Source: a virus (lineage: Duplodnaviria; Heunggongvirae; Uroviricota; Caudoviricetes). From it: DNA of 64,000 bases. Under the pieces are notes generated by a model, which made no database searches, had not been told where the DNA came from, and saw nothing but the letters and a program-made list of their open reading frames with translations. The DNA lies in the IMG/VR virus record IMGVR_UViG_3300031994_000017, positions 58,023-122,022 of that record; one strand, written 5' to 3'. Of the stretch, positions 1 to 27,078 are shown in pieces (the stretch's first letter is position 1; every line of letters begins with the position of its first letter). A program made the translations under genes and the position numbers.

Positions 1-382
1 CAGTCTTTCCAACAAGCGGAATACCAATTGCCGCGATAAAAGACTCAAAATTAGTAGATTTTGCTGCTTCAATTGAATTGAGAATGCGGTCAACTGACTT
101 TATGCCAAAGCCAGGAAGTTGTTTCCATTCTTCTTCATGTTCTTTTAGATGAAAAATATCCGCAAAACTATTAATCCAACCTTTATCAATTAGTTTTTCA
201 AGAGTCGCCTTAGAGATACCTTTAATATCTAAGCCTTTTTTGCCGCAGAAGTGTTCAATTTTATTTAACCATTTCCCTTCGCAATCGGGATTAGTACAGT
301 AAAGTTGTTCTGACTCATTAATTGCGGTAGGCTGGCCACAAATCGGACAAGTTTTTGGAATTTCAAAATAAATTTTATTCAT
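1..382 (-). CDS. ligA: C-terminal fragment of an NAD-dependent DNA ligase (Zn-finger CxxC...CxC plus HhH), partial at the window edge; a separate ORF with its own start and SD
   Basis: Translates to MNKIYFEIPKTCPICGQPTAINESEQLYCTNPDCEGKWLNKIEHFCGKKGLDIKGI...IGIPLVG. The Zn-ribbon and helix-hairpin-helix pattern matches the LigA C-terminal domains. Confidence 0.6.
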   Translation of the reverse strand, partial: MNKIYFEIPKTCPICGQPTAINESEQLYCTNPDCEGKWLNKIEHFCGKKGLDIKGISKATLEKLIDKGWINSFADIFHLKEHEEEWKQLPGFGIKSVDRILNSIEAAKSTNFESFIAAIGIPLVGKT

Positions 383-989
383 CATCTACATATCTCCAAT
401 GTAATTTTCCGCAGGTTTTTCGCTAACCTCTACATACCATACAAATTTTAGACTAAGTAGTGTTTGGATTCTATCGGGCAGCTTCTGAAGCACTTTCATA
501 GATTATACCAGTTTCAATACACTAAACTTTTCTTTTTCTTGCTTCAGTTGCTTTTTGAGCATTTATTTTTCGCATCTTAGCCATCTCTTCTGGATGTTCT
601 TTTTGCCATTTAAGCATATCTGCTGCTCGAGCAAGACCAAATTCTGGATGCTATTTTTGCCATTCTAAAGCTGCTGGTAAAGCATTTGGAGAGATTGAAT
701 GAAAACCGCCTCGATTTATATTATATCCTTTTTGAGGATCTCTAGCTTCATACAATTCTATATAATAATCTTCTTTTTCAGAAATTAAATTGGGTTCCCA
801 ATCTCCTTCTTCTAAAATAATATGTTCAAAATTATTCCAACCATATTTTTTAATAGCTTGAGTAAAATGCTAATTTTCTTTATAACCATGTCCATTTGCC
901 CATCTATCATTTGGTTTTTTTTGAGTTGTATACCCAATATACACCTTATTATTTATTTTGTTTTTATGCATATAAATAAAACAATACAT
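375..989 (-). mobile_element. GIY-YIG homing endonuclease with a C-terminal NUMOD-like DNA-binding motif, inserted between the two ligA segments; contains 3 in-frame TAG codons
   Basis: Starts MYCFIYMHKNKINNKVYIGYT and contains NINRGG (GIY-YIG). The C-terminal GIIYESASEAAR resembles a NUMOD helix. It has its own SD (AAGGAG). The reading frame is only open if TAG is sense. Confidence 0.55.
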
Positions 990-4486: not shown

Positions 4487-4520
4487 TGAAAAGACGAGTC
4501 TTTAAAGACTCGTCTTTTTT
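4487..4520. terminator. Bidirectional intrinsic terminator between the convergent fiber gene and the topoisomerase gene
   Basis: AAGACGAGTC-TTTAAA-GACTCGTCTT perfect hairpin flanked by T/A runs. Confidence 0.6.
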
Positions 4521-6880
4521 TATATCTTACTTACTGATAAAATACGATTATCCTTTATAATAATATTACCTTGTGCCATGCGTCCTACTTGAGGAATTTC
4601 TTCAGCTTTTATACATAGACTATTATTATTACCAATAGCTAGTAAAGTATCGCTATTATTTACTATGGCCGCATCTTTTACATAATCATTATCATTTAAT
4701 TTACAGATTATTAAACCTTTACCGCCTCGGCTTTGTACCATTAGTTCATTTGTATTAGTCCTTTTGCCCATGCCTTCATAGGTAAAAACCGCCAAATCAT
4801 CATTTTTATCTCTAATAGGAAGAGCTTTTACAACTTGGTCATCATCTTTCAAAGTAATTCCTTTTAAACCAATAGTTGTTCTACCACTAGCAGGAATAGT
4901 TAAGCTGTTAAGTCTAAGCGCCATACCCTTTTTAGTTAAAATAACTACATCCTCATCATTCACTAAGAAAGCTGAAGCAATATTATCTCCTTCTTTAAGG
5001 TTAATAGCGGCCAAACCGGTCTTTTTCCGCGTCTTAGTATATTCTTCAAGACTAGTCTTTTTAGTAATTCCATTTCTAGTAACAAACATAACATACTTAG
5101 CGTTAGTATCTCGGTAAATAGAATAAATAGTAACAGGATATTCACCTGTTTCCATTTCAATTAAAGCATTTACCGGCATACCCTTAGAAGTATTATTGCC
5201 TTCTGGAATTTCATTTACGATAAGACGATACATATTACCCTTATTGGTAAATACCATAAGTTTGTCTACGGTATTAGTGCGCAACACCATATTTGTAATA
5301 TCATCTTTTGTTTTTACACCTTTAGTATTGCGGCGTTGGGTCCGGAAGGCGGAAATGGGAATACGCTTAATAAGACCGCTTTCACTCAAAATTACGACGC
5401 ATTTTTCAGGTTCAATATTTGCGATTTCTTTATCTTCATCTTTTGGTTCGGCAATTTGAGTTAATTCAGTTCTGCGAGGACGGCCATATTTCTTACCAAA
5501 GGTAATTAAACGTGTTAAGAAAATACTTTCTCGTTCTTGAACGCTATTTATAACTTTTAAAGCATTAGTTATTTTTTGCTCTAATTCAGCTTTTTCCTCA
5601 TTTAGTTCAATACTCTCTAGGTGCGCCAATCTACCTAACTTCATATCAACAATTGCTTTAGCTTGTTTTTCAGTGAAGTTATATTGTTGTTTTAATTTAA
5701 TAACTGCATCACTAGAACTATTAGATTTCTTAATGAGCGCAATGATATTATCTATATCTTCTAGGGCTTTAAGAAGACCATCAACAATTTCTTTGCGATT
5801 AAGCATTTTATTATAATCAAAAGAATATTCTTTCAAGATGCAATTAATGTTATGTTCAATATATATGTCTAAATATTCTTTTAAATTAAGAAGTTTAGGA
5901 GTTTTACCCACCAAAGCATACTGATTTGCATTAAAACTTTTCTGCAAATCAGTATTTTTATACAGAGCATTTAAGATTTTATGAATGTTTCCTTCACATT
6001 CAATTTCAATTAAAAGCTGTTTTTTATCACTTTTATTAGTTACATTGATAATACCAGGAATAGTATCTTCAATAGCCAGTTTTTTAATTTCCTCTATCAA
6101 TGGTTCTATATAAACTTGATAAGGTACTTCGGTAATTAGAATTTTATCTTTTTGTATTTCTGCCTTTGCGCGCAAAACGACTTTACCCTTGCCAGTTTCA
6201 TAAATAGACTTTAAATTATCTTTATTTATAATAATTCCACCAGTAGGAAAGTCTGGGGCCAAATTAGAATAATTTAGTTTTTTTGTTTCTACGTATTCTT
6301 TAATAACCGCGATTAACTCATTTAAGTTACTGGGCAACCATACATTTGCGATTGTACTACCGATTCCTTGGCAACCATTAATCATAAGTCGCGGAAAGAT
6401 AGCTGGTAAAACTACCGGCCATTCAGCATCTTCAGAGAAATTCTGTTTCATTGGGACATTATTTTTATTAATACCAACAAACATACCTTCTTCTGTTGAT
6501 TTGGCCAATCTAGCTTCTGTATATCTATCAGCGGCTGGTTCTCCGCTAATTTGGATAGAACCATTTGCTCCATGCCAATCTACTTCTGGAAGATTATTAA
6601 TCCAAGGCTGAGACATTCTCGCAAATGTTTCATAAACAGCTACGTTACCATGCGGCCACCAAGTTGCGATAGTTCCGCCGCTAATCTTAGCACTTTTTAC
6701 ATGAGGCTTATTGCTAGTATAACCTTTTGAATACATTTCCCAAAGACAAGCCCGTTGTCCAGGCTTAAGTCCGTCTCTCGCATCAGCAAAAGCTCTTTGG
6801 CAGTTTGCTTCATAAGAAAAATCCAAAAAGTTTTGACCTAATTCTTTATTAATATCAATCATTTTCATTAGCCTCCTCAC
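4520..6880 (-). CDS. Type II DNA topoisomerase, large (GyrA/ParC/T4 gp52-like) subunit
   Basis: DGLKPGQRACLWEM (compare GyrA DGLKPVHRRVL); 786 aa. Confidence 0.7.
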   Translation of the reverse strand: MRRLMKMIDINKELGQNFLDFSYEANCQRAFADARDGLKPGQRACLWEMYSKGYTSNKPHVKSAKISGGTIATWWPHGNVAVYETFARMSQPWINNLPEVDWHGANGSIQISGEPAADRYTEARLAKSTEEGMFVGINKNNVPMKQNFSEDAEWPVVLPAIFPRLMINGCQGIGSTIANVWLPSNLNELIAVIKEYVETKKLNYSNLAPDFPTGGIIINKDNLKSIYETGKGKVVLRAKAEIQKDKILITEVPYQVYIEPLIEEIKKLAIEDTIPGIINVTNKSDKKQLLIEIECEGNIHKILNALYKNTDLQKSFNANQYALVGKTPKLLNLKEYLDIYIEHNINCILKEYSFDYNKMLNRKEIVDGLLKALEDIDNIIALIKKSNSSSDAVIKLKQQYNFTEKQAKAIVDMKLGRLAHLESIELNEEKAELEQKITNALKVINSVQERESIFLTRLITFGKKYGRPRRTELTQIAEPKDEDKEIANIEPEKCVVILSESGLIKRIPISAFRTQRRNTKGVKTKDDITNMVLRTNTVDKLMVFTNKGNMYRLIVNEIPEGNNTSKGMPVNALIEMETGEYPVTIYSIYRDTNAKYVMFVTRNGITKKTSLEEYTKTRKKTGLAAINLKEGDNIASAFLVNDEDVVILTKKGMALRLNSLTIPASGRTTIGLKGITLKDDDQVVKALPIRDKNDDLAVFTYEGMGKRTNTNELMVQSRGGKGLIICKLNDNDYVKDAAIVNNSDTLLAIGNNNSLCIKAEEIPQVGRMAQGNIIIKDNRILSVSKI

Positions 6881-8762
6881 TGTGCGCTAAAAGATAAGCT
6901 CGTCTAGGTGGAACAGAAGGACCCAATAGACATTCAATCAAATTCTCAGTTTCTTTTATATCATTAACAACAAGTTGGGCAATATTACGAGTCTCAGGAT
7001 TTAGGAGCGCATCAGCAAGCTCTTCTGCGTCACTCTCGCCAAGGCCCTTGTTTCTGTTTATAAGATATTTTTCATTTTTATGAGCTTCTTTGTATTCTTC
7101 TAGTGCTTTATTATCTTTTAAAAAGATATATTGATTTTTCTTAGTGGTAATACGGAAAAGAGGTGGCATAGTTGTATAAACATGACCATTTAAAATTAAC
7201 TCTGGGCAAATCCACCAAAAGAACTCAATAAGTAAGTTACGAATAGCAGAACCATCAGCATCAGCATCAGCGCATAAAAGAATTTTTCCGTAACGTAATT
7301 TTTTGGTGTCATAAATAAGTTTATTAGTTTTAGGATTTAATTCAAGTCCTAATGCCTTAATAATATTTATTACTTCTTGATTTGCGAAAATCTTTTCACT
7401 ACTATTTTTATATGTTGAAATTAATTTTCCTCTAATAGGAAATACAGCATGAATTTCTGCTGTACGTGCTTCTACTAGTCCGGATGCGGCAGAGTCACCC
7501 TCCGCAATTAATAGCTCACATTTACTTCTATCCTTACCCCAACAGTCTACTAATTTGGTAGGAAGATTAAGTAATTTGTTTTTATTTCCTTTAAGTTCTT
7601 TATCTCTAACCGCGTTTCTAGCTTTTGCAGCAGCTTCACGAGCCTTTTTCGCCATTTTAGCTTTATCTGCAATAATTTTAATTTCTTTTTCATTCGCGGC
7701 CAACCATATGCGCAGCTCTTCAGCAATTGCCGCTGTATATGGCGTCATTTCAAGCTTCGTTACGCGCGTTTTTACCTGCGCATCATAGCCAACATTAGGA
7801 GCAGTAATATTAAATACAATATATAATCCTTCTTGAATATCTTCGCCAGAAAGATTATCTTCTCCCTCTTTAAGCCACTTTTTATCTTTAAAGAATTTAT
7901 TAAATTCTCTTGTCAAAAGAGATTTAATTTGAGTAATATGCGGACCAACGCTTGTGAGACCGGTATTGACATATGGAACCATAGTCATCGCATAGTTTGA
8001 GGTATATGTCATTACCATATCAATTTTATTTTTGCCATTAGCAAACTTTAAATCAAAGCGATGGTCAATTAATTCTTTACCTTTAACCGCTTCATCTACC
8101 AAATCATTTAATCCGTTTTTAGAAAAGTATGTTGTCTTTTCTCCATTGTTATTTAATTCAATAGTAAGACCAGGGCAAAGACATGAAACTGTCTTGAACA
8201 GGGCTTTCAGTTCACTTACATTTACTTCTGGATGTGTAAAAAATTCTTCACTTGGCTGCCAACATACTTCTGTTCCATCTGGTAGAGTAGTTTTTTCAGA
8301 CCAGCGTTTTTCAAATTCTCCCTCTTTAAAACGGATTTGTTCGCTATCACCATTACGATAAGTTTTAACAACTAACCAATGAGAAAGGAATGTTGTAATC
8401 TTTGAACCAATGCCAAAAGAACCAAGAGATGTACCTTCATATGTTCCATCTTCTCTATATTTACCCGAAGTATTTAATACACTAAAAGCGGCTTCAAGAA
8501 TAGTTTTTCCATCTTCTCTAAAAGAATTAGGAATAAAACCTTGACCGTAATCCCTTAAACGGCATTTTGTTCCTTCAATTTCAACTTCAATTTTATTTCC
8601 ATGCCCTAATCTAAATTCATCTACGGCATTAGAGAAAATTTCTACCAAAAGTTGAGTGGAATAGGTTGTGTCGCCCGCATAAACGCCTGGCCGCAAACGA
8701 GTAAATTCTAGTGGAGAAAGTGATTCAATTGATTTTTCATTATATAATGTTTTATCTGTCAT
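6855..8762 (-). CDS. Type II DNA topoisomerase, ATPase/Toprim (GyrB/ParE/T4 gp39-like) subunit
   Basis: GHKL-like N-terminus (EIFSNAVDE) and Toprim (LLIAEGDSAASG). Confidence 0.7.
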   Translation of the reverse strand: MTDKTLYNEKSIESLSPLEFTRLRPGVYAGDTTYSTQLLVEIFSNAVDEFRLGHGNKIEVEIEGTKCRLRDYGQGFIPNSFREDGKTILEAAFSVLNTSGKYREDGTYEGTSLGSFGIGSKITTFLSHWLVVKTYRNGDSEQIRFKEGEFEKRWSEKTTLPDGTEVCWQPSEEFFTHPEVNVSELKALFKTVSCLCPGLTIELNNNGEKTTYFSKNGLNDLVDEAVKGKELIDHRFDLKFANGKNKIDMVMTYTSNYAMTMVPYVNTGLTSVGPHITQIKSLLTREFNKFFKDKKWLKEGEDNLSGEDIQEGLYIVFNITAPNVGYDAQVKTRVTKLEMTPYTAAIAEELRIWLAANEKEIKIIADKAKMAKKAREAAAKARNAVRDKELKGNKNKLLNLPTKLVDCWGKDRSKCELLIAEGDSAASGLVEARTAEIHAVFPIRGKLISTYKNSSEKIFANQEVINIIKALGLELNPKTNKLIYDTKKLRYGKILLCADADADGSAIRNLLIEFFWWICPELILNGHVYTTMPPLFRITTKKNQYIFLKDNKALEEYKEAHKNEKYLINRNKGLGESDAEELADALLNPETRNIAQLVVNDIKETENLIECLLGPSVPPRRAYLLAHSEEANEND

Positions 8763-9208
8763 TATTTACCTCCTATTGGTTTTTCTTTTCCGGTCGCGAG
8801 CTTATCTGCTCTCTCGTTCCAGATATGGCCCGCGTGACCTTTAATTTTTTGGAGATTAATTCTATAACCTTTTTGATAATGCTCATAATATGCTTTTATA
8901 ATATCAAGATTTTCTGGAATTTTTTTATCACTTTTTATCCACCCATTATTAGCCCAACTAAACATCCAATTGGTAAGTGTATTGAAGCAATATGCGGAAT
9001 CAGTATATACTTCTGGATAAGGAGCTTCTTTTACTCCATACATAAGCATAGAATATAAAATAGCTTCTAATTCCATGCGGTTATTGGTTACATTTTCTTT
9101 TTGCTTAGCATATTCGCTAATTAAATATCCTTCATCGGCAACTACTACGACCCCAAAGCCGCCTGGCCCTGGGTTTCCGTGCGAAGAACCGTCAGTAAAT
9201 ATTTTCAT
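8762..9208 (-). CDS. rnhA: Ribonuclease H
   Basis: MKIFTDGSSHGNPGPGGFGVVV...NNRMELEAI...HAGHIWNERADKLA. Confidence 0.7.
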   Translation of the reverse strand: MKIFTDGSSHGNPGPGGFGVVVVADEGYLISEYAKQKENVTNNRMELEAILYSMLMYGVKEAPYPEVYTDSAYCFNTLTNWMFSWANNGWIKSDKKIPENLDIIKAYYEHYQKGYRINLQKIKGHAGHIWNERADKLATGKEKPIGGK

Positions 9209-9350: not shown

Positions 9351-9399
9351 AAAAGGACTATATTAATATAAAATAATATAGTCCTTTTATTAAAATTTA

Positions 9400-10713
9400 T
9401 TACATTTTATTTGCTATTTCCGCGATTTTACTTCTATGAATTTGATTTAGTTCAATTTCACCATAAATATCTTCGCCTCTAAAAATTTTAGAAGCTCGAT
9501 ACATACCATTCTTTATACCTTCATAATTAGTTAAATCAACCTAGCTTTTTATATCACCATCTAGAATAAAAATAACATCTTCTCCTGCGCGCTATAATGC
9601 TAATTTTAATAATTCAACATCTAAATTTTGCGCTTCGGTAATATAAATACCGGCATTCATTCCAGAAGTATCATATCCTCTAATATCACTTATAGGCAAT
9701 AATATTAATTTTTCATTGTTTATTAACTATTCTACAATTAATTTACTACCTAATTTGCTTGCTAAAAAGTTGCCTATTTGAGAATCTAAAAGTTTAGCAT
9801 CTTTACTGCCTGGGTAAAAGCCAAGCTTGGCCGCATTTTTAGTCGCTACTGGATTACAAAAGATAATTATTTTATCTATTTTATTTTTTTCTAATAAATA
9901 GAATAAATAACCAATAGCCAAATAAGATTTACCTGTGCCCGCAGGCCCTTTTATCATTGTTATTTGGTTATTTAATAAGCTATCTGCTACCATAGCTTGA
10001 TAAATATCATCTTTATAAGGTTTAATTTCTCCTAATTGTTTAGAGCAAAAACTTTTGTATTTTAATGGACGAAAAGAATTTCCTAACCAGCATAAAGTAT
10101 CTACTCTATTTTTAGTTTGAGTTTCATAAATATTTAAATATTGATTTACTTTTAATTTTAAATCTTGCCCAAGTTTTTCTGGATAAGAATAAAAGTCAGC
10201 CATTTCTTCCTCATTAAGGTAAGCATCAATATATCCTTTATAATCATCTTTGATTTTTTCGCTTTTTACATTTTCTTTACCAAAGAATTGTTGAGCGATT
10301 ATTTTTAAAGCCAAATCATTAGTATAAAAAACACATTTTTCATCCCAATGAGTTTGTAAATAATTATAAGCTGCGGCAAGTATTTTACTATCATTATTTA
10401 TTTCAATATTTAAATCATGAAGCCAATTTTCAAAATTAGTTTTATAAATAATACAAGTATATTTATCAGGATTTTCATCTAATTGATGTAGTAGCTACTA
10501 TGCTTTACTTTTAATACTTGAATCTTTGTTTGCGGAAGTTTTTATATTTTCTAATTCTTTTAATGAAATATTTGTAATAACTATTTTGTCATTGGTATCA
10601 AAAATTTCTTCTGCTTTAATTAATAAGCTACTTGTGTCATATATTTTAGTCATTTTCATATTCTTCTCCTTCTTGCGGTATAGTAAAACCAATTGCGGAT
10701 ACATTATTTTCAA
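9400..10713 (-). CDS. phoH: PhoH2-like protein (PIN domain plus PhoH ATPase) with at least 6 in-frame TAG codons, including a TAG-TAG tandem
   Basis: The N-terminal PIN shows KIYDTSSLL and SLKELENIK. The Walker A is GPAGTGKS. The C-terminal ILDGDIKS[TAG]VDLT aligns with the conserved PhoH GD-x-TQ-I/V-DL motif (recalled from memory), placing TAG at a Gln. The true stop is TAA at 9400. Confidence 0.6.
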
Positions 10714-11029
10714 TATTTGTATTTGTTGCTATTTTTGTTTGATTTTCCGCAATCTTTAACGCTACTTCACTTTGTTTCTATTGGAACCAACTTGCGCACG
10801 TATTAAATATATTATCTAATACTGATACTCCCCAAGCGCCAAAAGAGAAGCCTAAGAAAAATATTGTTATTTTAGAAATAAGACATCATCCTCTCTTATT
10901 AATATATAGGGGTAATAATTTATTACCCCTATATGTATTATTTAGCAGTAGAGTTTTTATTTAAATAATTGATTTTAATTATCCAAGAGGAAAATTTTCT
11001 TTTTCCTTGTTTTCATTTTTATCAGAGTT

Positions 11030-11269
11030 CTATGAAATTTTTAATAAATTTTCTTTCTCAGCCTTTTTATAATAATATGCTTGACTTACCCCATAGGCAG
11101 TCCAAGGTAAAGCCACCATTGCGGTTAGCCAAGGCAATTCCGCGTATGCTCCTAAGAAAACACAAATAAAAGAAAGAGCAATAAGTGAAATTGTCATGAT
11201 CCAAATAAGAGCTGATTCTTGAATTAGTAATTTTTTAGAAAATTCTTTTTTTTTTTGTTCTTTCTTCAT
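11030..11269 (-). CDS. Small membrane protein
   Basis: Hydrophobic helices (ISLIALSFICVFLGAYAELPWLTAMVALPW). Confidence 0.35.
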   Translation of the reverse strand: MKKEQKKKEFSKKLLIQESALIWIMTISLIALSFICVFLGAYAELPWLTAMVALPWTAYGVSQAYYYKKAEKENLLKIS

Positions 11270-11307
11270 TTAAAATTATCTCCTTTTGGTAGGTATGCTT
11301 TAGGTGC

Positions 11308-11742
11308 TTAAGGGTTTTCTTTTATCGGATATTCGTATTTATGTTCGCAACCGAAAATAATATGATTTGGTGATTCTCCAAAATTATTACTATTGAATCC
11401 AATAGCAAACACATCCGCATCCATTCGATTAGCATATTGTATAGTATATTTTCCATTATATATATTACCAGGATAGTCATTTTCAGAATAGACGCAAACG
11501 TTTGGCATAGCATTAATAATTTCTTCATATGTTTTATCAAGTCTTAAATTATTAGTACCTTCAATACGTTCTATATTTACTATTAAGGCTGAAGAATCGC
11601 TGGAGTCATCACCAGATTCAGCATTCTCTTCAACAACATCAGCAATTTTATCCATTACAGATATTAAATTTTTATCCTCTGCTTCCTCACCACTAAGTGC
11701 GGTAAAAATTCTCTTTAATGGTTTTAATAAATTTAGTTTCAT
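11308..11742 (-). CDS. Hypothetical acidic protein
   Basis: 144-aa ORF. Confidence 0.35.
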   Translation of the reverse strand: MKLNLLKPLKRIFTALSGEEAEDKNLISVMDKIADVVEENAESGDDSSDSSALIVNIERIEGTNNLRLDKTYEEIINAMPNVCVYSENDYPGNIYNGKYTIQYANRMDADVFAIGFNSNNFGESPNHIIFGCEHKYEYPIKENP

Positions 11743-11764
11743 TGTTATTATCTCCTTTTAAAAA

Positions 11765-12880
11765 TTATTTTTTTTCAGTATAATCAAGGCAAATCCAACC
11801 AGCGCCAGATTTTAATTTGCCCCAATTATCCTTTTTATCAACAATAGTATATACACCATTTTTATAAATAACAGTTTTAACGCTATAATTGGCGCCTGGG
11901 CCGCTGCGGACATTAAGTGCGTTCGCGGTTACACGGATTACATAGGGGTCAAAAGCAGGGGCAGGTGGTTGCGTGCTGGCCGCAGCTTTAGTGAGATATT
12001 TTGTATTAATAGGGCTACTAATTGAACTCTTTTGGTCTTCTGATTTATCAATAACAGCTCTATCACCTTTAATAGATTTAATATACCATTTTTTAGCTAA
12101 TACCCATGAAGGAATTGCTTTTCCGTTGTAATAAGTTGCGCCAGATTTGATATCAACTAAATCGCCAGCCTTAAATTCTTCGGTAGTTGGGGGAGTCGGC
12201 GGTTCAGGCTCTTTTGCGGCTGGAGGAGTAGTTGCTTTTAAAATCGCAGAAACGTCTGCCCGCACATTGTTCATATCTTTATTGTATTTATTAAACCAAC
12301 TATAAATATCAGTGTGCGCGCCTCCAAGACCTAACTTATAGCTATCCCAGTGGCAAAGAATGGTAGGAACTTGAACGCCCTTATACTATACTGTGCCATT
12401 TGGATCAATATTAAACATATTACATAAATAGGCAGTTATTTCACAAGCTTCTTTATAAGCCTTATTAAAATAGTCCTAGCTTGTGTAGCCGTCATCACAG
12501 ATTTCAAACTAGATCCAAAATGGTCCACCAGTAGAACCATTACAACTACCTTTAGGTCCTGAGCCGCAGCCCCAAGGACGATAATTCCAAGGCATTGTTT
12601 GAACAGTGGTTATAGTTCCATCCGCCAGTTTACCAACCCAGCAGTTAAGACCAGCAGAGTGATGAATATGATTCCAATCATTCTTATAAGCATTTTTACC
12701 TAATAATTGAAGTAATTGAGCTTTATTTGCCGCATTATCATCTGGTTGAACATATCTGCGAAGTTCTGGGTTTCCACCAGCGGTATCATGCCAAAGAATG
12801 CCTACGGGTGTGCCTTTTGTGGTACCTTTATAGCAAGTACTCTATGTCATCATACAAACTAGAGGTTTATTATTTGTATT
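11765..12880 (-). CDS. Endolysin: an N-terminal catalytic domain that uses TAG codons, plus C-terminal tandem SH3b cell-wall-binding domains
   Basis: The C-terminus has KAGDLVDIKSGATYYNGKAIPSWV and VIRVTANALNVRSGPGANYSVKTVIYKNGVYTIVD (SH3-like). The N-terminus MKYNTNNK...GILWHDTAGGN... has a GGAGG SD at 12880 and 4 in-frame TAG codons. Confidence 0.55.
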
Positions 12881-12897
12881 ATATTTCATAAAAAATC

Positions 12898-13113
12898 CTC
12901 CTTTTATTCTTCTTCTTCTTTAGTTGGGTTATTTTTATCTACCCATGTTTTATTTCCATTTAAAATATATTCTTTTCCGCTATTTATTACATAAGCAGTA
13001 CTTCCCATTTTATCAGTAGTGCGTAATTGCTTTATATCTTCATCTGTATCTACTATATAAGTCTAAATACCATATGCTTTAATTCCATTAGAAGCAATAA
13101 TGCCTATAGACAT
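12898..13113 (-). CDS. Small hypothetical protein (1 TAG)
   Basis: MSIGIIASNGIKAYGI[TAG]TYIVDTDEDIKQL... Confidence 0.3.
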
Positions 13114-13210
13114 TTTATTTCCCTCCTTTTTTAATCTCTACTTTTTATAAAAAAGATATCGGTAAAATGAAGCAAAATGGCCCAAAAAGAAAAAGCCAGA
13201 GTGATTTATT

Positions 13211-13633
13211 TCACTCTGGCTTCTTATCTTCGTATTTGTTTTTAATGCGTGTCGCATATTCAGAATAAACATTTACAATATCTTTTTCAAATTTTTTACT
13301 TTGATAAATATAATCTTTAATTACTTCCAAATCATCTTCTCGTTGGCGGATTTGTCGCTGAAGCATTATTGCTTCATAACTCTTTGGATTATATTTTTTG
13401 CTTTTATTCATTGAATAATATAATTGCTTTAAGGCTTGTAATTGCGGTTTAATTTCATTTTCTCGGACGAAACATAAATATTTACGAAATGCTCTTCGTT
13501 CTGCGAGAGAACCGCCAATATATTCACTAAACCTATCTTCTGGATGACAATGAGCTTCTCCAGTAAAGGAAAATCCTTTGTAATCCATAACCGCAGTTGT
13601 TAAACCATTTTCCGCATTGAAAAAAGTTTCCAT
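13211..13633 (-). CDS. Hypothetical protein
   Basis: 140-aa ORF; a promoter motif lies upstream at 13640-13690. Confidence 0.4.
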   Translation of the reverse strand: METFFNAENGLTTAVMDYKGFSFTGEAHCHPEDRFSEYIGGSLAERRAFRKYLCFVRENEIKPQLQALKQLYYSMNKSKKYNPKSYEAIMLQRQIRQREDDLEVIKDYIYQSKKFEKDIVNVYSEYATRIKNKYEDKKPE

Positions 13634-13639
13634 ATATAG

Positions 13640-13690
13640 AACTCCTTTTTTCTTTTATTATATCATATATTTTTATAAAAGTCAAAACAA
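13640..13690 (-). promoter_or_regulatory. Conserved promoter motif (copy 3, more divergent)
   Basis: TTGACTTTTATAAAAATATATGATATAATAAAAGAAAA on the minus strand. Confidence 0.4.
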
Positions 13691-13724
13691 ATATTTATAT
13701 TAAGAGATATACTTGTTTTAATTA

Positions 13725-14041
13725 TTTCATTTGAACATAATCAATTTTAAAGTAATTGGTTCCATCTTTGGTTAACCGCAATGTGCCAACGGTATCATAA
13801 CCAAAAATAATAAAATCAATAAATTTGTAATAAGTATCACAAATATAACTAGTTAATTTACCCGTACAATTAGGTCCTTTAATTTCAATAGCTAAATCTT
13901 CATTATTTTTTGCTAAATTGAAAATATAATCCCAATTAAATTTAGCTTCTTCAATATTTTTACTTTCAAAAATAAGGTTTTTATTTTCCTAATAAGGATT
14001 ATCAGTAATAGTAATAGTAGGGATATAAATAGTCATAGTAT
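13725..14041 (-). CDS. Small hypothetical protein (1 TAG)
   Basis: MTIYIPTITITDNPY[TAG]ENKNLIFESKN... Confidence 0.3.
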
Positions 14042-14194
14042 TTTTTCCTCCTTAAAATTAATTAGCAATTAGATAAATATTATTTAGGCGTGTAAACATT
14101 CACGTCAACAAACAATTTATAAAAGGAAGTCTGCGCGACCTTAGTAGCATGACCAACACAACGATAATTGCTTCGCTTATGTTGATTCCCTCCC

Positions 14195-16081
14195 TTATGT
14201 GATTACTTCATTGATCGTGATGGTCCAATTTGCGCCGGACCCATAGCCCGCGATGCGCAGTAGCGGTCGGTTATTTACTGATTTCAGTGGCATATTATCA
14301 GGCGTCAGCGTCCATGTCATATTGCCGCTCGCATCAAAAGCGATTGTTCCATAGTTGGTGGATGTACCCTCCGTGAGATAACCGCCGCCAACAAAGGTCT
14401 CATCCGTATGGTAACAGCACCACGTTGCGTTGCTGTGTGTAGACTTTCGCATATCCACACCGCTCGTGCGGATGACAACAGTCTCGCCCTTGTCCACCCA
14501 CGGCGTCAGATCGATGAAGCCGGAGGTCGTGTAGCCAGTGGCAGCAGAAAGTGTGCCTTTGCTTGTGGACAGGCGATAGCCGTCTGTGTAGCCGATTGTG
14601 TTGATAAGGTTGGTATAACCACTCGTCACACAGGAAATCGTGATGTTCCCGGTCACATTTGCGATGGAGATTGTTCCATTATTGTATGCCGTCGCAGAGA
14701 TGTCCACGCCTCCCATTAAGACGGTCACGCTGCCGATGGTGTAGCCACTCGGAACGGTCAGTGTTGCGCTGTAGGTCTGGCCCTCTTCGATAGATGTCGC
14801 CATGTTAGAGATCTCCGCCTTGCCAAGGCTGTTGATCGTAATCGTGTATTGTGCCGTCACGTAGTTATAGGTCCGGTCATAGCCGGCGCCGTAATGGTCT
14901 GCGTATATGACACCGCGATCCAGGTCGATGCTCACCACGACAAAGGCCGTGTCCTGTCCGGAGTCAGCGGTCTTGTTGTAAGTAGTTGTTTCGCCGAACT
15001 CGACGCCATTAGATTCTGTTCCGCTATTGCGGCCATATTCGTTATTGCGTCCGAAGCAGACATTTGGTACCGCCAGTCGGACCACATCCATCTCACCCTC
15101 GTCGATGGCGCCACCAGAGTATCCGATGGCGTGGAGCTTGCCCATGAGGTAATTGTGAGTGTGCCCATGAATCTGCGCGATGAGCTTAGCACTGTTTTTC
15201 CCGGAAAAATTGTAGCTTATTGTTATTCCGTCATAAGCCAGTGAGACAGCGCTGCCGTTTAAGTATGCCTTGATTATCTGAGACACGCGGAAGGTCTGCC
15301 AGTCGATTGGGTGGTGACAGCAGATAATCACTCCCCAATTAGCTGCGTCGCTCTTGCTACCAACCTCGCCGAGCCGGTCGGCAAACCACTGTAGCTGCCT
15401 GCCGCTGATCCACAGGTCCTTCGATTGCGTGTCCGCTGTCGTCTCGGCGCTGTTAAGGCAGATCACCCGGATTTGCTTGGATACAAAGTCCTGATAGCAG
15501 TATCCGCCCTTGAGATTTTGCGGATCGACCGTGCCGGTGCTATAGACGCCGACCAGGTTATACATCTCGTCCCGATAGATCGGCGTGTGACCACCGAGGT
15601 CTGAGGAAAAGTGTAGATTATCATGGTTGCCAACACTATGGAACTGCGGCAGACTTCCGAAGGCGTCCGCGAGGTTGGCATGCATCTGCCTAATCTCCGC
15701 AACGCCGTTATCATAGGTTGTGTTGCTGCCGCCGGCGGTGGCATCTCCTAACCACATGCAGCAGTCGATCTCCAGTGCCCGGCGCAACAGGCTGGCCGCT
15801 TGTCCAGCGTGCTTTGCTGAGGTAACAAGCTGCGCGTTAGTGCGGTCGATGTGACTATCTGATAGCGCAAGAATGCGGAAACCATTCACGATCCCGTGGC
15901 TACTGACCTGATTGGCCACCCGGAGCGCCTCCTGTACCACATAACTGTCCGGATAGCTGCTGATCTCCCCGATCGCCGCCGGCATCTGCGCCGGGGTATA
16001 GGATGCGCTTAACCCGTTCTTCGCTCGAATCGCGTTGGCAATCGCGGTGAGGTTAGATTCTGTTATTAAAGCTTGACTCAT
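14195..16081 (-). CDS. Receptor-binding or tail-fiber paralog with a calcineurin-like metallophosphoesterase domain and Ig-like repeats; GC-elevated
   Basis: ILALSDSHID, GDATAGG, GNHDN and GHTHNY metallophosphoesterase motifs. The N-terminus is shared with the 2493..4439 protein. The repeat TLTVPSGYTIGSVTVLMGGVDIS resembles SVGVTPASGYVISDVSITMGGVDIT. Confidence 0.55.
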   Translation of the reverse strand: MSQALITESNLTAIANAIRAKNGLSASYTPAQMPAAIGEISSYPDSYVVQEALRVANQVSSHGIVNGFRILALSDSHIDRTNAQLVTSAKHAGQAASLLRRALEIDCCMWLGDATAGGSNTTYDNGVAEIRQMHANLADAFGSLPQFHSVGNHDNLHFSSDLGGHTPIYRDEMYNLVGVYSTGTVDPQNLKGGYCYQDFVSKQIRVICLNSAETTADTQSKDLWISGRQLQWFADRLGEVGSKSDAANWGVIICCHHPIDWQTFRVSQIIKAYLNGSAVSLAYDGITISYNFSGKNSAKLIAQIHGHTHNYLMGKLHAIGYSGGAIDEGEMDVVRLAVPNVCFGRNNEYGRNSGTESNGVEFGETTTYNKTADSGQDTAFVVVSIDLDRGVIYADHYGAGYDRTYNYVTAQYTITINSLGKAEISNMATSIEEGQTYSATLTVPSGYTIGSVTVLMGGVDISATAYNNGTISIANVTGNITISCVTSGYTNLINTIGYTDGYRLSTSKGTLSAATGYTTSGFIDLTPWVDKGETVVIRTSGVDMRKSTHSNATWCCYHTDETFVGGGYLTEGTSTNYGTIAFDASGNMTWTLTPDNMPLKSVNNRPLLRIAGYGSGANWTITINEVIT

Positions 16082-16102
16082 TTTTTATCTTACCTCACTT
16101 TC

Positions 16103-18688
16103 TTAATAACTTGTAGTATTAGCATTAGCCATGGGAACCCAATTAATTTTTAAATTATTGGTAGAACCATTTTGACTAATTTCAAACTACCCATAAGATA
16201 AGCCTGTGTCTTCATCCTAATAATTAAAATTAAAATATATTTTTTCTATGTCAGTATCTACAAAATAAGAATTTAATCTACCTCTGTTGTATCCGCCATC
16301 ATTAATAATTAATGAAATATTATCACAATTGTCAGCAGCATTCTCAAGTGTGCTCCATGTTACAGCGGGAGTATATGAAAGAGTAGCTGTTGTGAAAGGA
16401 TTAGACGTTATTGTCAATTCTAACTAAGTAGTTACTGCTTTATTGTCTATAAACAATTCATTAGATGATGGATTATAGGTTAATGATGAAGCTTTGTTCA
16501 CAGTAGCAGTTACAGCTGTTGTAGCAGTTGTACCACCCAATAATATTGGATAATTACCACTAGTTGTAATTGCCGCGGCTTGCGTAACTTGATGATCACC
16601 AGTTGGTATAGTCCATGATCCAGAATTATTTAAGAAGTAAGTAGAAGAAGAACCAAAAGCTGGGCCAGCTTTTACCATATTACTATCGCTATTGTCAGTA
16701 ATTAAAATACGGTCACTAGAAGCAACTGTTACAGTAGTTGTTACAGCGCCAGCATTAGTGATATTACCATGAGTATGCTCGTAAGTAGCAGCTCCTCCTG
16801 AAGAACCAAGAGTCATAATACCAGGAGAATCAGTAGTAGCTGTTGGTGGTGTGTAATTTAATGATAGATGACCATCTATTAGTGTAAACTATTCACTAAC
16901 ACTTTCGATAAAATTAAAATTTTTAATATAAATAGTTAATATATGATCTTCACCATTATATATAGCTGCTTGTCCCTAAAAGAAACTTGAAGCTATTTGT
17001 TGAGCAAAACCAATAGTACCAGGAATAAGCATAAAAGATCCCATAGTTACGGTACTTTTAGGATAAAATAAAATTTCTGAAGGATAAAATAAAATTTCTG
17101 AATCAGTAAAATCATATACTGCTATATAATAACTTAATATTTCTTGGTTAATAAAACTCTAAGGTACATTATTATAGGTCAGAGTAGTTACACCATTTTT
17201 AGTAATTATTGTGGGAGGTCCATAATCATTTAAATTTATATGATGTATTAGTGTCTCATTTCCAAGTTCTTCCCAAGTATTACCATTCCATACAAATTCA
17301 GTCTAGCTATTATCAGCGCTATTATATTGTAAATATACATCACCAGCATCACCTAAATACTCACTACCTATAACACTACTTGCCGCATTCTCAGTTCCGC
17401 CATCAGTAATGGTCTATTGGGCAGAACCTTTAAAGTGCATTGCTCCTGTGGTAGCACCAATTTCATAGATGTCTGTTATGGTAGCGATACAGTATTCTGA
17501 ATTTTCAGATTGCGTTACTAAAAAAGTAATTAATTTATTTTTATAAATCCCTTGAAATGAAATACTGGTTCCATTTATTCCAATAGGAAGAATAGGAAAA
17601 GAATCAACTATTTCATTTGCCTATGAATCATCAACTAATACTCCTACTATATAAGTCTAAGCTCCCTCCAAACAAAAACCAATTAATTGACTATAAGATA
17701 TTTCACTACGAGATGTAAAATTCACTACGGCAAAAGTGTTATTTATAGAAAGTGAAAAAGGATAAGAAACTACTCTTATAAACTCTACAAGTTTTGCATC
17801 ATAATTGGTAAAAGCATTACTTATTTGACTATTGACCCAACTAATATTAGGTATTATATCTCCGCTAGAATCATCAGTAGGAGTGGGAGCCGTTGGGGCT
17901 CCAGTAAACGCAGGGCTTGCTACTGGCGCTCTACTTGTGTCAGTTGGGTGAACATGGTCTGCTCTAGCATATTCGGTTGAAGTACCAATAGCGCCTGTAC
18001 CATCCATAACGGGAGTAGTTGTAGCAAAACCACGATTTCCATTATAGATACCAACAATATGATATTGCGTGCTATACATCATAATAACAACATCATTAGG
18101 TTTGATTAAATTAGTGGGGCAAGCAGCACCATTCCAATAAATCGCTTTAGCGCCTTTACTATTTATATTTAAGGTTGGATTTGCGGCCGTATTACCATTG
18201 GTAAATTTAATTGCGCAAATACCATGAGCAACTAAAGCATATGATGACATTGAAACAGTTTTTGCGGCTGTGCCTACTGCGGTACTACAAGTTCCATAGC
18301 ATTGACCTTGTGCTACATTATTTGTATAACCAGAGGAATTATAGCCATAATACATCATCCAACAGCCGCCAGAGATTCTAGTGCTATCATATACAAATAA
18401 CATTGTATAAGCTGTATTAAATGTAGTAGTTACTGCGCTGGCGTTGGCCATACTATTATAAATGGGTTTAGCGCCCAAACCATTGACATTTAAAGTACAA
18501 CCAGAAGCAGAAGTTACTTTACCATTTTTGATAAAGCAGCAAACACCATCTCGCAACTCTTTAATGCCAGGAACAGTGGCGGTAAAGGCTGTTGAAGTTG
18601 AAGTGCTGTCAACAGTGCCGGACGGAATAGCCACTGCCCGCACACCATATTCTTGTTCATTAACTTCTATATTACTTATAAAAGCCAT
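16103..18688 (-). CDS. Tail fiber protein (about 860 aa) with many in-frame TAG codons
   Basis: The start MAFISNIEVNEQEYGVRAVAIP has an AAAGGAG SD. An internal module MHFKGSAQ[TAG]TITDGGTENAA...GDAGDVYLQ...EFVWNG is shared with 19924..21170. The frame is continuous through ORFs 17657..18688, 16424..16816 and 16217..16417 to a TAA at 16103. Confidence 0.55.
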
Positions 18689-18709
18689 AATTTATATTTT
18701 CTCCTTTCA

Positions 18710-19840
18710 TCATTTTTATTTTGATGACTAGGATTTTTCTAATAAAGCTAAATAATTTTTCTAAATTCTTTCATCTAAAGGAGCTAGCTATAAGGCTTTT
18801 AAAGCATTTTTTAAACCTTTCTCTATATCATTAAGATAAAAACAAGAAATAGCAATTGTATCATACGGACCTTCGCGCCAGACGACAGCGCGTTCAGTCC
18901 AGTCAAAATGCTAATGACTTTTCGCCAATCCCTCTTCCATGAAAGCAAGAGCAATATTATACAGCCCTAGATCATTATATATAGTGGCAAGATTATAATA
19001 TGGTTCTCTATATGTATAATCTAATATTAATTGTTGATTATAGTATTTTATTGAGGTAGCAATATCATTTTTACAACGATAAATATCTCCCAAATAACCC
19101 GTTACACAATATTCGACAAGCGGGAATGTTTTAATATCATCTCTGGCAAGACATAATTTAAACTATTCTATTGCTTTATCAAATTCTCTAAAATTACCAT
19201 ATTCTCTACCTAAGAGATAATAACCATAAGTATCAGTAGGATCTTCTTCAACCCGCAGTTTTAACAAATCTAAATAATTAGATCGTGATTTTTCCTAGTC
19301 GGGATAGTGATGTAAGGTAATAGAATTACCGAAATCAATTAAATGACCTCCTTGTATTTCTGCGGCTAATTCTTTGTATCCTCCAGGAGGTAAAAGAACT
19401 TCATGAACCGCGAAATGCCATTGATACCCATGGATATGCATTTTATCATACCAAAATGTTTCAGCGGGTTCTCCTGTTGGGGTATGTGACCAAATATACC
19501 GATAATGGCCACGCCAAGTATTTTCTGTCCAATTATTGCGAATTAAATCACCCCAACCGGGTTCAAGTAATTCGTCTAAATCAGTGCAAAATAAGATATT
19601 AGCATCTTCTGGCACAAGTTTTAATGATTCATTGCGGGCAACATCAAAACGCCAAGGTTTAATTATTTTTTGTTCTATTCTTGTTACTCGTGAATCATTT
19701 TTAAAAAATTCATATGTTCCATCGGTTGAGCCGGTATCTAAAATTACTATATAATCGGCCTCTGACATTGAATCAAGCCATTTGGCAGCAAATTTCATCT
19801 CATTTTTACATATAGCGTAAATACAAACTTTATTTTCCAT
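18710..19840 (-). CDS. Family-2 glycosyltransferase fused to TPR repeats. It contains TAG codons and an apparent +1 frame change near 19195.
   Basis: GT2 N-terminus (CIYAICKNE...ILDTGSTDGT...DLDE). The TPR text continues in the +1 frame after ...YYLLGRE|LW*. Confidence 0.4.
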
Positions 19841-19923
19841 ATATAATCTCCTTTATCTCATTTACATCAAGAGGTGACCATTAGGCCACCTCTTGATAGT
19901 TATAATTTTTATTAAATTGTTTA

Positions 19924-21170
19924 TTACAGAGTGACAGAGCCAGTAACGCCTTCCATATATTGTTTTGTGCTAGTAACAGTAATGGTTGCTGAGGTGCCCG
20001 TAAATGTAGGACGAGAAACTGTGCCATTTGGCAGTGTAATAGAAGTGCTGGTAGATGTGTCAATTTCGGTAACAACATCTTCGGTAGCTGTAACTGTAAT
20101 AGTTGCTGAAGTACCGGTAAATGTAGGCTGAGAAACTGAACCAGCGGGAGTATATGTTCCAGTACTAGTAATAGCGGCCTTTGTTGGGGTGATTTCGACA
20201 CTAACAGGAAGTGTAACATTGACCGTAGTAGAACCCCAAGTAAGAGTAGGAGCAGAAACTGTGCCAGCAGGAGTATAAGAGGCCGTAACTGTAATAGTCG
20301 CAGTAGTGCCAGAGAAGGTAGCTCCTGTAACATCTTTTACTACTGGTGTTGTTAAAGGATTAATAGCAGTTACTACATTCTCAGTAGACCAAGATAATAT
20401 TTCATTACTTACTGTAGCTGTATAAAGAACATTCGCTAAAGTAGGAGTATCAAAACCATAAACAACAGAAGTAGTTGTTTTATTTACACTAACGGAACCA
20501 GCGGGAGTATATGTTCCAGTACTAGTAATTGTAGCTTTAGTGCCAGTAAAGGTAGGTTGACTTATTGTATTACTAAGCAAAGTAGCTTGACCAGTTCCAG
20601 ATGTTACATCTTTAACAAACTACTCTGAGCTAGTAACTGTAATAGTCGTTGAAGTGCCAGTAAAAGTGGGTTCTGAAACTGTGCCGGCAGGAGTATATGT
20701 TCCGCTGCTAGTAACCTTTTTTAGCGTTGGAGTATCAAAATTAATATTAACTGCCACAGTTTTTGTGGAGTTTGTAGTAGCCCAACTGAAAGAAGGGGTG
20801 CTAATGGTACCAGCAGGAGTATAAGTTGCGGTTGAACTTACTGTAGATTTTGTGGGAGTAAGATCTACTGAATATGTGCCATGAGTTGCGTAAGAACCTT
20901 CATCGCCTAAAAGTTCCCAAGCTGACCCAGTCCATACAAATTCGCTAGTGCCAGGAGATTTTTGTAAATATACATCACCAGCAGCACCTGTATATGGACT
21001 GCCAGAAGCAGCAGCCGCATTTTCAGTTCCGCCATCTGTTAAAGTCTACAAAGCTCTATTTTTAAAATGCATTGGACTACCAATACTACCAATTTGTTCA
21101 CGAGCCCATGCGTCTTTAATATTATAAGTAATTGTACCTATATTTACTTTAGAAATATATGGTGTTGTAG
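19924..21170 (-). CDS. Tail fiber paralog with tandem 'PTFTGT-ATIT-TGTYTPAGSVS' repeats; contains TAG codons
   Basis: The start MPTTPYISKVNIGTITYNIKDAW has an SD. It shares the MHFKNRAL[TAG]TLTDGGTENAA module. About 7 imperfect repeats of roughly 30 aa. Confidence 0.5.
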
Positions 21171-21199
21171 GCATATTTTTTCCACCTTTCTTTTTAAAA

Positions 21200-21745
21200 T
21201 TAAATTGGCGTTATAGAAATTCCAGAAATAAATTCAGTATCAAAAGTAAGTATTTCAGAGCCTTCTACTACAGAAGCAGGAAGACTTTGATTAATGCCTA
21301 TTGCAATACTATCTTTATAAGCTAAGGCGCCCAATGACTAAGTAGTCGCGATACCTAATTCTGAAATTACTTGCTATTTTGTAAGAGACCTAATGCGGCC
21401 ATTGTTATCTATAACCGCAAAATTATCGGGGATACTTTCCCCTTCACCAATACTTATATTGCCTGTAGTTTCTAAGTATTGGCCTTGGATTGCCCCAGTA
21501 GAAGCATTAAAAGAACTTGAAGTAGTTCCATTTTGATCTACTATTTGAACATCGCCTGTAATCGTTCCGCCTGTTAAAGACATTTTTAAAGGGTCTTTAA
21601 CTTGAACTCTACGATCAGTTAAATCTATATAAAGAGCTAATGTTTCTGAATCAAAAACAAAAGCACCTGGTTCTAATGGCGGAAAAAATGGAGACGTCGC
21701 AGTAACCGAGGGGCCGTATTTAAATTTTACTAAATTTTGGTTCAT
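21200..21745 (-). CDS. Short tail fiber-like protein with an 'SLTGGTITG' motif (T4 gp37/gp12-like LSGGTMTG)
   Basis: MNQNLVKFKYGPSVTA...KDPLKMSLTGGTITGDVQI...; 2 TAG codons in the C-terminus. Confidence 0.45.
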
Positions 21746-21763
21746 GCCACTTCTCCCTTCTAA

Positions 21764-22147
21764 TTTTTTAATTAAGGAGTAGAATTTTCTGGTTCGAAAT
21801 GCTCCCAAGTCGGTAAAGCATTATATACAGCCCTGGCACTAGGAATTTGATCATCTGTTGACAATGAGTTAATTACTGTAATTAAATCTAAATCTTCTCC
21901 CGTAATGCCTGGAATAGTTATTTCTTCACCATTAATCAGAAGGGTCCCTGGTTCTGTGCCGGGGGTAATAGATATTGAAACGACCTAATCAATAGCTTCT
22001 AGAATTTCATTATTTAGTTCTATTTGTTTTATGAATTCCTATAATTTAGTATCTATTTCATATTTATTATAATAATGTAATTTTATTCTTTCAGCCAATT
22101 GCTTTAAAGCAGAAACTTTTACTAATTTTGTTAGGTCATAAGCCATT
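21764..22147 (-). CDS. Hypothetical protein (3 TAG codons)
   Basis: MAYDLTKLVKVSALKQLAERIKLHYYNKYEIDTKL[TAG]EF... Confidence 0.35.
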
Positions 22148-22172
22148 ATTCTCTCCCTCCTTTTTTTAGAAT

Positions 22173-22222
22173 TTTAATAATAAATTTACTCCATTAAAAC
22201 ATGAAAGGTGCTTTAATGGAGT
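22173..22222. terminator. Hairpin (TTTACTCCATTAAA / TTTAATGGAGTAAA) downstream of the large virion gene
   Basis: A 14-bp perfect inverted repeat around a 13-nt loop. Confidence 0.4.
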
Positions 22223-22373
22223 AAATTAATTTTGACCAAAAAAATTCTTACGTATTAATCTATTCAATATGATTCTAATTATTAAAATAATACCATATAA
22301 GTTGTTTAACCTAAGGATTATAACTATCATCAAAATCATAATAATTAAATACTATTCCTATATTATTAATAGA

Positions 22374-26274: not shown

Positions 26275-26565
26275 TCATTTATCTTCATCATCCCAATGAC
26301 GACATTCTCCATCGCTAGATAAAAGTGCTCTACACTCCTCTGCCGCTTCTTCTACTGGCATATCTCCGTATAGCTCCTCATACCAATCTGGATAATAACA
26401 CTTAATATAAGCAGGATCATTTACACATCCTTCATAGCCTACAATACAAGCAGGCGTATAATCGGGTAGGCGGACACTGGCTTTCGCGACCGCTTCGGCA
26501 ATTGCCGCAAGTTCTTCAATCGGCATTTCCTCAAGCTTTTTTAGTAATTCTTCTATATTCAACAT
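26275..26565 (-). CDS. Hypothetical acidic protein
   Basis: 96-aa ORF. Confidence 0.4.
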   Translation of the reverse strand: MLNIEELLKKLEEMPIEELAAIAEAVAKASVRLPDYTPACIVGYEGCVNDPAYIKCYYPDWYEELYGDMPVEEAAEECRALLSSDGECRHWDDEDK

Positions 26566-27060: not shown

Positions 27061-27078
27061 TTTTCTCTCCTTTAATTA

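Follow-up and report, generated by a model that had tools for sequence, protein, structure and literature searches.

The window considered here is a stretch of 64,000 nucleotides of the IMG/VR virus record IMGVR_UViG_3300031994_000017 (positions 58,023 to 122,022), assigned to Caudoviricetes. Very probably it is part of the genome of a large tailed phage in which TAG stands for Gln in a subset of the genes, as in genetic codes of the table 15 type, and is presumably decoded by a tRNA with the anticodon CUA. Comparison with related viral sequences indicates with high confidence that TAG is a sense codon read as Gln. The original prediction had proposed a sense TAG, with Gln as the likely residue, mainly on the basis of a gene for a PIN-PhoH protein, and both parts of that proposal have held, in the orthologues of this gene and in the aligned TAG sites of the window as a whole.

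TAG codons in the PIN-PhoH gene and its orthologues

The PIN-PhoH (PhoH2-like) gene lies on the minus strand at 9400..10659, a strand that had not been stated previously. As had been proposed, it forms a single open frame once TAG is read through, starting with an ATG at 10659 that has GGAG ahead of it and ending, after 419 codons, with a TAA at 9400-9402. The in-frame stops within this frame number five, not the "at least 6" first reported, and every one is TAG; an alternative upstream ATG at 10704 adds none. When TAG is written as X, Pfam returns a single PIN_4 match (PF13638, residues 6-123, E 1e-10) and a single PhoH match (PF02562, residues 220-413, E 9e-24), both of which run across TAGs, and the architecture is that of an N-terminal PIN domain followed by a C-terminal PhoH P-loop ATPase with a conserved Walker A motif, GPAGTGKS. 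The top NCBIfam match is "RNA 5'-3' helicase PhoH2", although the equivalog cut-off of that library (NF053827) is not reached, with 73 bits against the 680 needed. Because the PIN and PhoH matches are accompanied by a score so far under the cut-off, the protein is, on its domain matches, placed as a distant PIN-PhoH (PhoH2-like) member and not filed as an equivalog. It resembles the PhoH2 family in its PIN_4 N-terminus, its PhoH ATPase C-terminus and its GPAGTGKS, (S/T)EAQN and GD..Q-VD motifs, and differs from it in that TAG takes the place of a Gln codon at two of the motif glutamines, in the window gene or its orthologues.

A scan of viral contigs gave 78 loci with full-length relatives of this PhoH, with 44-77% identity, the contigs concerned being about 120 kb to 400 kb long. 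These relatives carry between 0 and 7 in-frame TAG each, and their stop is always TAA or TGA. A codon alignment was built from 61 distinct orthologue sequences, and the five TAGs of the window gene behave differently in it. The adjacent pair that had been noticed at 10495-10500 is indeed present (codons 54-55 in the PIN domain, 10498-10500 and 10495-10497, minus strand), and 365 conserved codons still follow it; opposite codon 55, the relatives have K, Q or L. The TAG at codon 311 (9727..9729, minus strand) stands in a variable column (R 28, Q 14, E 6, TAG 5, K 4). At codon 356 (9592..9594, minus strand), the column is otherwise an invariant Gln, with Q in 56 relatives (CAA 31, CAG 25), TAG in 4 and nothing else. 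Codon 373 (9541..9543, minus strand) falls on the Gln of the GD..Q-VD motif, where the relatives have Q in 52 cases, TAG in 8 and, again, nothing else. This is the site, ILDGDIKS-TAG-VDLT, at which an invariant Gln of the PhoH family had been predicted, and in the structure PDB 3B85 a Q stands opposite the TAG of GDIKS-TAG-VDL.

Codons 356 and 373 map to columns 424 and 441 of the alignment. Together with columns 288 and 412, these hold solely Gln codons (CAA or CAG) or TAG among the 61 orthologues, column 412 being the Gln of (S/T)EAQN and column 441 that of GD..Q-VD. All five Gln columns conserved at 90% or more hold TAG in some orthologue, as against 2 of the 130 conserved columns of other residues (Fisher p = 6e-8). 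In two of the loci, the PhoH orthologue lies within an open frame that is twice as long as usual, with about 850 codons (L063:10004-12568 and L075:9380-11920), which suggests either a fusion or the insertion of an intein or another element.

The residue at TAG and the CUA tRNA

The window has 35% GC and nearly all its genes are on the minus strand. With TAA and TGA as the only stops, 61 credible open reading frames (ORFs) are obtained, 21 of which hold 76 in-frame TAG and 40 none. Within the 21, the interruptions are TAG alone, 76 times, and never TAA or TGA. The stops used are TAA in 55 ORFs and TGA in 6, in agreement with the original prediction; TAG ends no ORF, and those without internal TAG likewise all stop at TAA or TGA. 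In-frame TAG thus amounts to 76 per 6830 codons in one set of genes and to 0 per 9469 in the other, and since off-frame TAG is about as frequent in the TAG-using as in the TAG-free set (296 vs 306), base composition does not account for the contrast. Coding coverage, taken as greedy ORF coverage under each set of stop codons, rises from 0.73 under table 11 to 0.88 with TAG as sense for the whole window, and from 0.58 to 0.93 between 9.4 and 26 kb; with TGA as sense, a control, the values are 0.75 and 0.60. Re-calling the genes in this way therefore merges the fragmented frames, as expected of a sense codon.

In order to identify the amino acid, every protein of the window was compared with the translations, TAG as X, of 95 related loci, and the inference made use of 23 TAG sites, in six genes, that had a partner other than TAG. 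Weighted by site, the commonest partner of TAG is Gln, at 36% against a background of about 3%, far above Lys (14%), Arg (10%) and Thr (9%). Conversely, opposite the TAGs of the relatives, the Gln residues of the window are enriched 7.5-fold. A likelihood test, with substitution profiles taken from the same alignments, gave log-likelihoods (lnL) over the 23 sites that, relative to Gln, were -11.8 for Lys, -21.2 for Arg, -21.4 for Glu and -38 for Trp. Gln came out on top in 1972 of 2000 bootstraps, and still did so when PhoH was left out. As a control, samples of 23 sites whose residue was known (Q, K, E, R, N, T, L or W) were each recovered correctly in 200 of 200 runs. Moreover, the relatives carry Q at 36% for TAG sites, compared with 41% for true Gln sites of the window. 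Codon usage is also of interest here. Controlled for GC content at third codon positions (GC3), CAG makes up 5.5% of CAR codons in TAG-using genes and 17.3% in TAG-free genes, with GAG unchanged, which is consistent with conversion of CAG to TAG. The raw contrast of 14 vs 107 CAG codons is mostly due to GC-rich TAG-free genes, and because the effect is modest once limited to low-GC3 genes, it serves as supporting evidence only.

The strongest mechanistic element, absent from the original prediction, is a suppressor tRNA gene with the anticodon CUA (CTA) and an encoded CCA end at 46142..46218 on the minus strand. ARAGORN finds 31 tRNA genes between 45.6 and 57.8 kb, a single one of which has the CTA anticodon. 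Its product fits the general tRNA model of Rfam end to end (57 bits, positions 1-71), folds as a canonical cloverleaf and has a U1-U72 mismatch, G2:C71, G3:C70 and G73. The weak 1:72 pair, G2:C71, G3:C70, G73 and U35 are features used by the GlnRS of Escherichia coli; the tRNA-Gln(UUG) genes of two relatives, L081 and L083, also start with UGGGG. Amber suppressors of this kind are known from E. coli, where supE is a tRNA-Gln with the anticodon CUA, and su7 a CUA tRNA-Trp that is charged with Gln. The window tRNA presumably resembles both in its CUA with U35, its weak or mismatched 1:72 pair, G2:C71, G3:C70, G73 and its near-Trp arm, and presumably differs from them in being encoded by a phage and in serving dozens of essential phage genes, instead of acting as a leaky suppressor. 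We infer that the tRNA at 46142-46218 is the decoder of TAG and that it would be charged with Gln, either by the GlnRS of the host or by GluRS together with an amidotransferase.

The exact anticodon arm of this tRNA, ACGGUCUCUAAAACCGU, is common to 32 otherwise unrelated CUA tRNAs of viral contigs (39 loci, L096-L134). The tRNAs with this arm are heterogeneous, some having long variable arms, and none is more than 75% identical to that of the window; the type-I examples L125 and L119 share with it the mismatched 1:72 pair and G73. None of the CUA tRNAs from the anticodon-arm search of viral contigs sits on a contig that bears the PhoH gene.

A number of observations speak against Gln, or against this tRNA as its carrier, and have to be set beside the evidence above. 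Reliable alignment was possible for 24 of the 76 TAG sites, all in six genes, and the most TAG-rich genes are without usable homologues, so that they add nothing to the amino-acid inference; for the 1244-residue protein with 18 TAG, no relatives were found in viral contigs and no family in PHROG or Pfam. Opposite codon 54 of PhoH, the first of the adjacent pair, 56 of 60 relatives have Arg, and two TAG sites of the lysin align chiefly with Asn. The SHMT gene (40003..41286, minus strand) does contain one in-frame TAG, at codon 20, as had been claimed, but the expected Gln is not borne out at this site, where 20 of 22 relatives, as well as SHMTs of solved structure, have a conserved Glu; SHMT was accordingly dropped as support for Gln. 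As for the tRNA, similarity to 98 other tRNAs of the window and its relatives gives an identity of 0.63-0.74 to every isotype, and a single base (C35 to U) separates its anticodon arm from the tRNA-Trp arm of L083. Since the isotype is unassignable by similarity and the arm is Trp-like, the tRNA sequence alone is no proof of charging with Gln. Finally, no release factor or aminoacyl-tRNA synthetase was seen among the scanned ORFs of these 64 kb of a probably much larger genome, where many ORFs of less than 140 residues were left unscanned. Release factor 2 and GlnRS are optional accessory genes of a code change and have been reported in a minority of such phages. The sites at SHMT, PhoH codon 54 and the lysin are ordinary substitutions; single sites are noisy, and therefore only the aggregate identifies Gln.

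The same observations can be turned into an argument for another residue, Lys being the likeliest, followed by Glu, Arg or Trp, inserted by a tRNA derived from a Trp or Lys tRNA in a host without GlnRS. Such a decoding appears highly improbable to us. It would account for Lys as the second commonest partner of TAG, enriched 2.8-fold in the reverse direction, for the Glu of SHMT and the Arg of PhoH codon 54, and for an anticodon arm that differs from a tRNA-Trp arm by a U in place of C35; the closest deposited phages, moreover, infect Bacillota, many of which lack GlnRS and have amber suppressors that insert Lys. However, all four residues fall well behind Gln in likelihood, Lys was on top in 27 of the 2000 bootstraps, and the controls separate Q from K and E in every run. 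In addition, none of the 8 conserved-Lys, the 6 conserved-Glu or the other conserved columns resembles the five Gln columns, in which TAG is the sole alternative. That TAG might be a genuine stop, with the interrupted genes being pseudogenes, split genes or assembly errors, would agree with their fragmentation under table 11, and is scarcely credible given that the frames are broken by TAG and by no other stop, that domain matches and homology continue at full strength past the TAGs, that orthologues from dozens of independent metagenomes are alike at the same conserved-Gln columns, and that a dedicated CUA tRNA is encoded. Pyrrolysine has nothing in its favour beyond the label "tRNA-Pyl" that ARAGORN automatically attaches to a CUA anticodon, and its probability is negligible: the tRNA folds as a canonical cloverleaf and matches the general model along its whole length, no genes for the synthesis or charging of pyrrolysine (pylS/pylBCD) are present among the annotated ORFs, and TAG is located in conserved-Gln columns.

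Some further features of the tRNA region deserve mention. No ribozyme is found beside the CUA tRNA at the Rfam gathering threshold; at a permissive threshold, there is a weak match to YrlA (RF02553, Y RNA-like) directly 5' of the tRNA (46221-46330, minus strand), with 28.5 bits against a gathering threshold of 69 and an E of about 3e-4 to 1e-3, which is mainly due to the tRNA-like module. This YrlA-like element could take part in the processing or control of the suppressor tRNA. A DUF2828/DUF7788 gene, annotated in PHROGs as "RNA-binding protein", is found at 42492-44027. With the YrlA-like element and the neighbouring genes for an RNA ligase, a polynucleotide kinase and a Thg1-like protein, it has the look of a set for RNA repair. 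Another tRNA (54270-54345, minus strand; 51 bits with the tRNA model of Rfam) has an anticodon loop of 8 nucleotides, for which ARAGORN gives the anticodon "ttgt". The relatives found through SHMT share an odd tRNA of their own (L081:12478-12552, L082:12490-12564, L083:12853-12927 and L086:12501-12575), close to the canonical tRNA-Gln(UUG) and with a 6-nucleotide anticodon loop, CUUAAG, called "ta" by ARAGORN; no CTA tRNA lies within the fetched flanks of these four loci.

Distribution of TAG among the genes

Upstream of PhoH lies a TAG-rich late block (10979..25982, minus strand), defined by the ORF map, TAG counts and Pfam matches, with virion, tail-fibre-like, glycosyltransferase and endolysin genes and small ORFs. 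Its largest member, a virion-type protein with 18 TAG (22248-25982), has 1244 codons when counted from the first ATG, instead of the 1202 residues given earlier. A tail-fibre-like gene with 10 TAG (16103-18688) is accompanied by further tail-fibre-like genes with 2, 2 and 2; the glycosyltransferase-TPR gene (18716-19840; Pfam GT2+TPR) has 6, and the endolysin (11765-12889; Pfam Amidase_2+SH3) has 4. Outside the block, a GIY-YIG nuclease gene (375..989, minus strand) holds 6, and a nuclease-like gene (44061..44963, minus strand) holds 8, one of them being the last sense codon before TAA; for the latter, Pfam gives DUF2726, which replaces the earlier label DUF559. The recurrence of interruptions by TAG alone, which had been proposed for these genes and for SHMT, is therefore real.

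The original prediction was also right in that the early genes are mostly TAG-free, as found for replication, nucleotide-metabolism and RNA-repair genes. RNase H and the B and A subunits of a type II topoisomerase (4520..9208, minus strand; labels read from the translations, with no scan of family libraries) are free of TAG in spite of their low GC3, as are genes for an NAD-dependent ligase, phosphoesterases, polynucleotide kinase, a nucleotidyltransferase, an adenylosuccinate-synthase-like protein, an RNA ligase and a Thg1-like protein. The block of nucleotide-metabolism and phosphoesterase genes (26275..34554, minus strand) is essentially TAG-free, the sole exception being the gene at 28388-29137 (minus strand), in which a TAG stands four codons ahead of the terminal TAA. 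This TAG and the one that precedes the TAA of the gene at 44061-44963 by one codon could be the real stops until suppression sets in and, from then on, add a short tail; the alignments of homologues end short of both.

On the minus strand, the TAG-rich virion, tail-fibre and lysin block is followed by PhoH, a hairpin, a promoter-like site, and RNase H with the topoisomerase. The hairpin, directly after the PhoH stop (9351..9388, minus strand), resembles an intrinsic terminator, with a stem of 15 bp and a T-run (-19.6 kcal/mol, z = -5.6), and the promoter-like site is of the extended -10 type (9339→9311, minus strand). With both at the border between PhoH and RNase H, the switch in TAG use coincides with a predicted boundary of transcription units. 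TAG use leans to the structural and lysis genes, and the replication genes follow the standard code. A published model proposes that standard-code early genes are expressed first, and TAG-bearing late, lysis and homing-nuclease genes after a switch of code (10.1101/2021.08.26.457843). On this pattern, the CUA tRNA of the phage would pair with UAG and insert its amino acid there, competing with the factor by which the host terminates at this codon. The genes that would be needed in the unmodified host (those for ligase, topoisomerase and RNase H, and those of nucleotide metabolism and RNA repair) contain no TAG; ending with TAA or TGA, they have the same reading in both states of the code. The virion, tail-fibre, lysis, PIN-PhoH and homing-nuclease-like genes, with 1-18 TAG each, would be obtained at full length only when the suppressor tRNA is active. 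It is thus plausible that the arrangement of TAG delays the expression of late and nuclease genes.

The split between early and late genes is nevertheless imperfect, and this counts against such a role in timing: SHMT and two nuclease-like genes carry TAG though they do not look late, and a gene of 628 codons inside the late block (14195-16081, minus strand) has none. Drift may account for part of the pattern, given these exceptions. It is also possible, though rather unlikely, that the recoding is real and its distribution is no timing device at all, with TAG having arisen by drift from CAG under AT pressure and the TAG-free genes being either recent or selected for efficiency. Several TAG-free genes are indeed GC-richer, CAG-rich and recent-looking. 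The gene at 14195-16081 is an example, since with 54% GC and 65% GC3 in a genome of 35% GC, and without TAG inside a TAG-rich block, it resembles a recent acquisition. TAG use, in addition, varies among the related contigs from none to heavy. GC content alone, however, does not explain the split, because low-GC3 replication genes (ligase and topoisomerase) have zero in-frame TAG and normal counts of off-frame TAG. Drift would not in itself lead one to expect a switch at a terminator and promoter boundary, nor the enrichment of TAG in lysin and structural genes, which has been described in independent phage clades (10.1101/2021.08.26.457843).

Several proteins of the window are worth recording in their own right. 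The first 35 or so residues of the 14195-16081 product resemble those of a phosphatase-domain gene on the plus strand (2493-4439; 43% GC, 2 TAG). Two TAG-free proteins of similar build, of 493 and 487 residues (58625-60106 and 62431-63894, both minus strand), each have a cysteine-rich, zinc-ribbon-like C-terminal part, and no family was found for them except for a weak double-zinc-ribbon match. The adenylosuccinate-synthase-like gene (32499-33641, minus strand) has a match in PHROGs to a family labelled PurZ-type (E 5e-36), and its product is far under the NCBIfam cut-offs of both PurA and PurZ.

Relatives, known recoded phages and significance

Among the 95 related loci, 57 have TAG in the aligned homologues and show a sharp increase in long-ORF coverage when TAG is taken as sense; the other 38 have no TAG and their coverage is barely altered. 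Recoded and apparently standard-code members thus coexist in this group, as in other clades. A megablast search with a 25-kb query found no match at the nucleotide level among deposited phages. The nearest deposited PhoH homologues, with 33-39% identity, are those of Alicyclobacillus, Geobacillus and Bacillus phages, and the Amidase_2+SH3 composition of the lysin suggests a Gram-positive host.

Recoding of TAG to Gln is already well documented in phages of the gut and rumen, and no new principle is involved here. It has been described, together with CUA tRNAs, in crAss-like phages (PMC7886860), where Gln at TAG was confirmed by mass spectrometry (PMC9523058). Borges et al. described it for Lak and other ("gemstone") clades (10.1101/2021.08.26.457843), and it is also known from the phAss-1 group (PMC10607447). 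Code 15 with CTA tRNAs has been reported in jumbo phages of the rumen, pig and human gut (PMC13037316). The window has in common with the crAss-like, Lak and gemstone phages its in-frame TAG opposite Gln and a phage-encoded CUA suppressor tRNA, the presence of TAG in structural, lysis and homing endonuclease genes with replication genes in the standard code, a low GC content, mostly TAA stops, and a code that differs among close relatives. It differs from them in that its nearest deposited PhoH proteins are from phages of Bacillota and that the scanned ORFs of the 64 kb included neither a release factor nor a synthetase. The gut and rumen jumbo phages (PMC13037316) are similar in the size of the contigs, about 120-400 kb among our relatives, in the 31 tRNA genes with a CUA tRNA, and in TAG within hallmark genes; that survey took the code from coding density only, whereas for the window the amino acid was derived from codon alignments of orthologues.

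Taken together, these comparisons leave room for a more specific proposal. The contig may stand for a lineage of large phages (about 120-400 kb) that has yet to be described, whose nearest isolates infect Bacillota and in which the two codes are interleaved, and its suppressor tRNA may be derived from a tRNA-Trp by a single change in the anticodon and yet deliver Gln. If true, the delivery of Gln in a host without GlnRS would need an unusual charging, by a non-discriminating GluRS with an amidotransferase, or by a factor of the phage. That such a Bacillota-type lineage, a Trp-derived suppressor delivering Gln and a YrlA-like control should all hold jointly is, in our opinion, improbable.

The practical consequences are more immediate. 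Table 11 mis-annotates this contig and its relatives, covering 58% of the late block and splitting the lysin, tail-fibre and PhoH genes, and calling genes with TAG as Gln repairs the annotation. The window provides a well-supported case of recoding outside the crAss-like and Lak groups. Its 61 PhoH orthologues, in which TAG appears repeatedly at otherwise invariant motif glutamines, constitute a natural reporter of the inserted amino acid, and the coexistence of relatives with and without recoding could serve for studying its origin.

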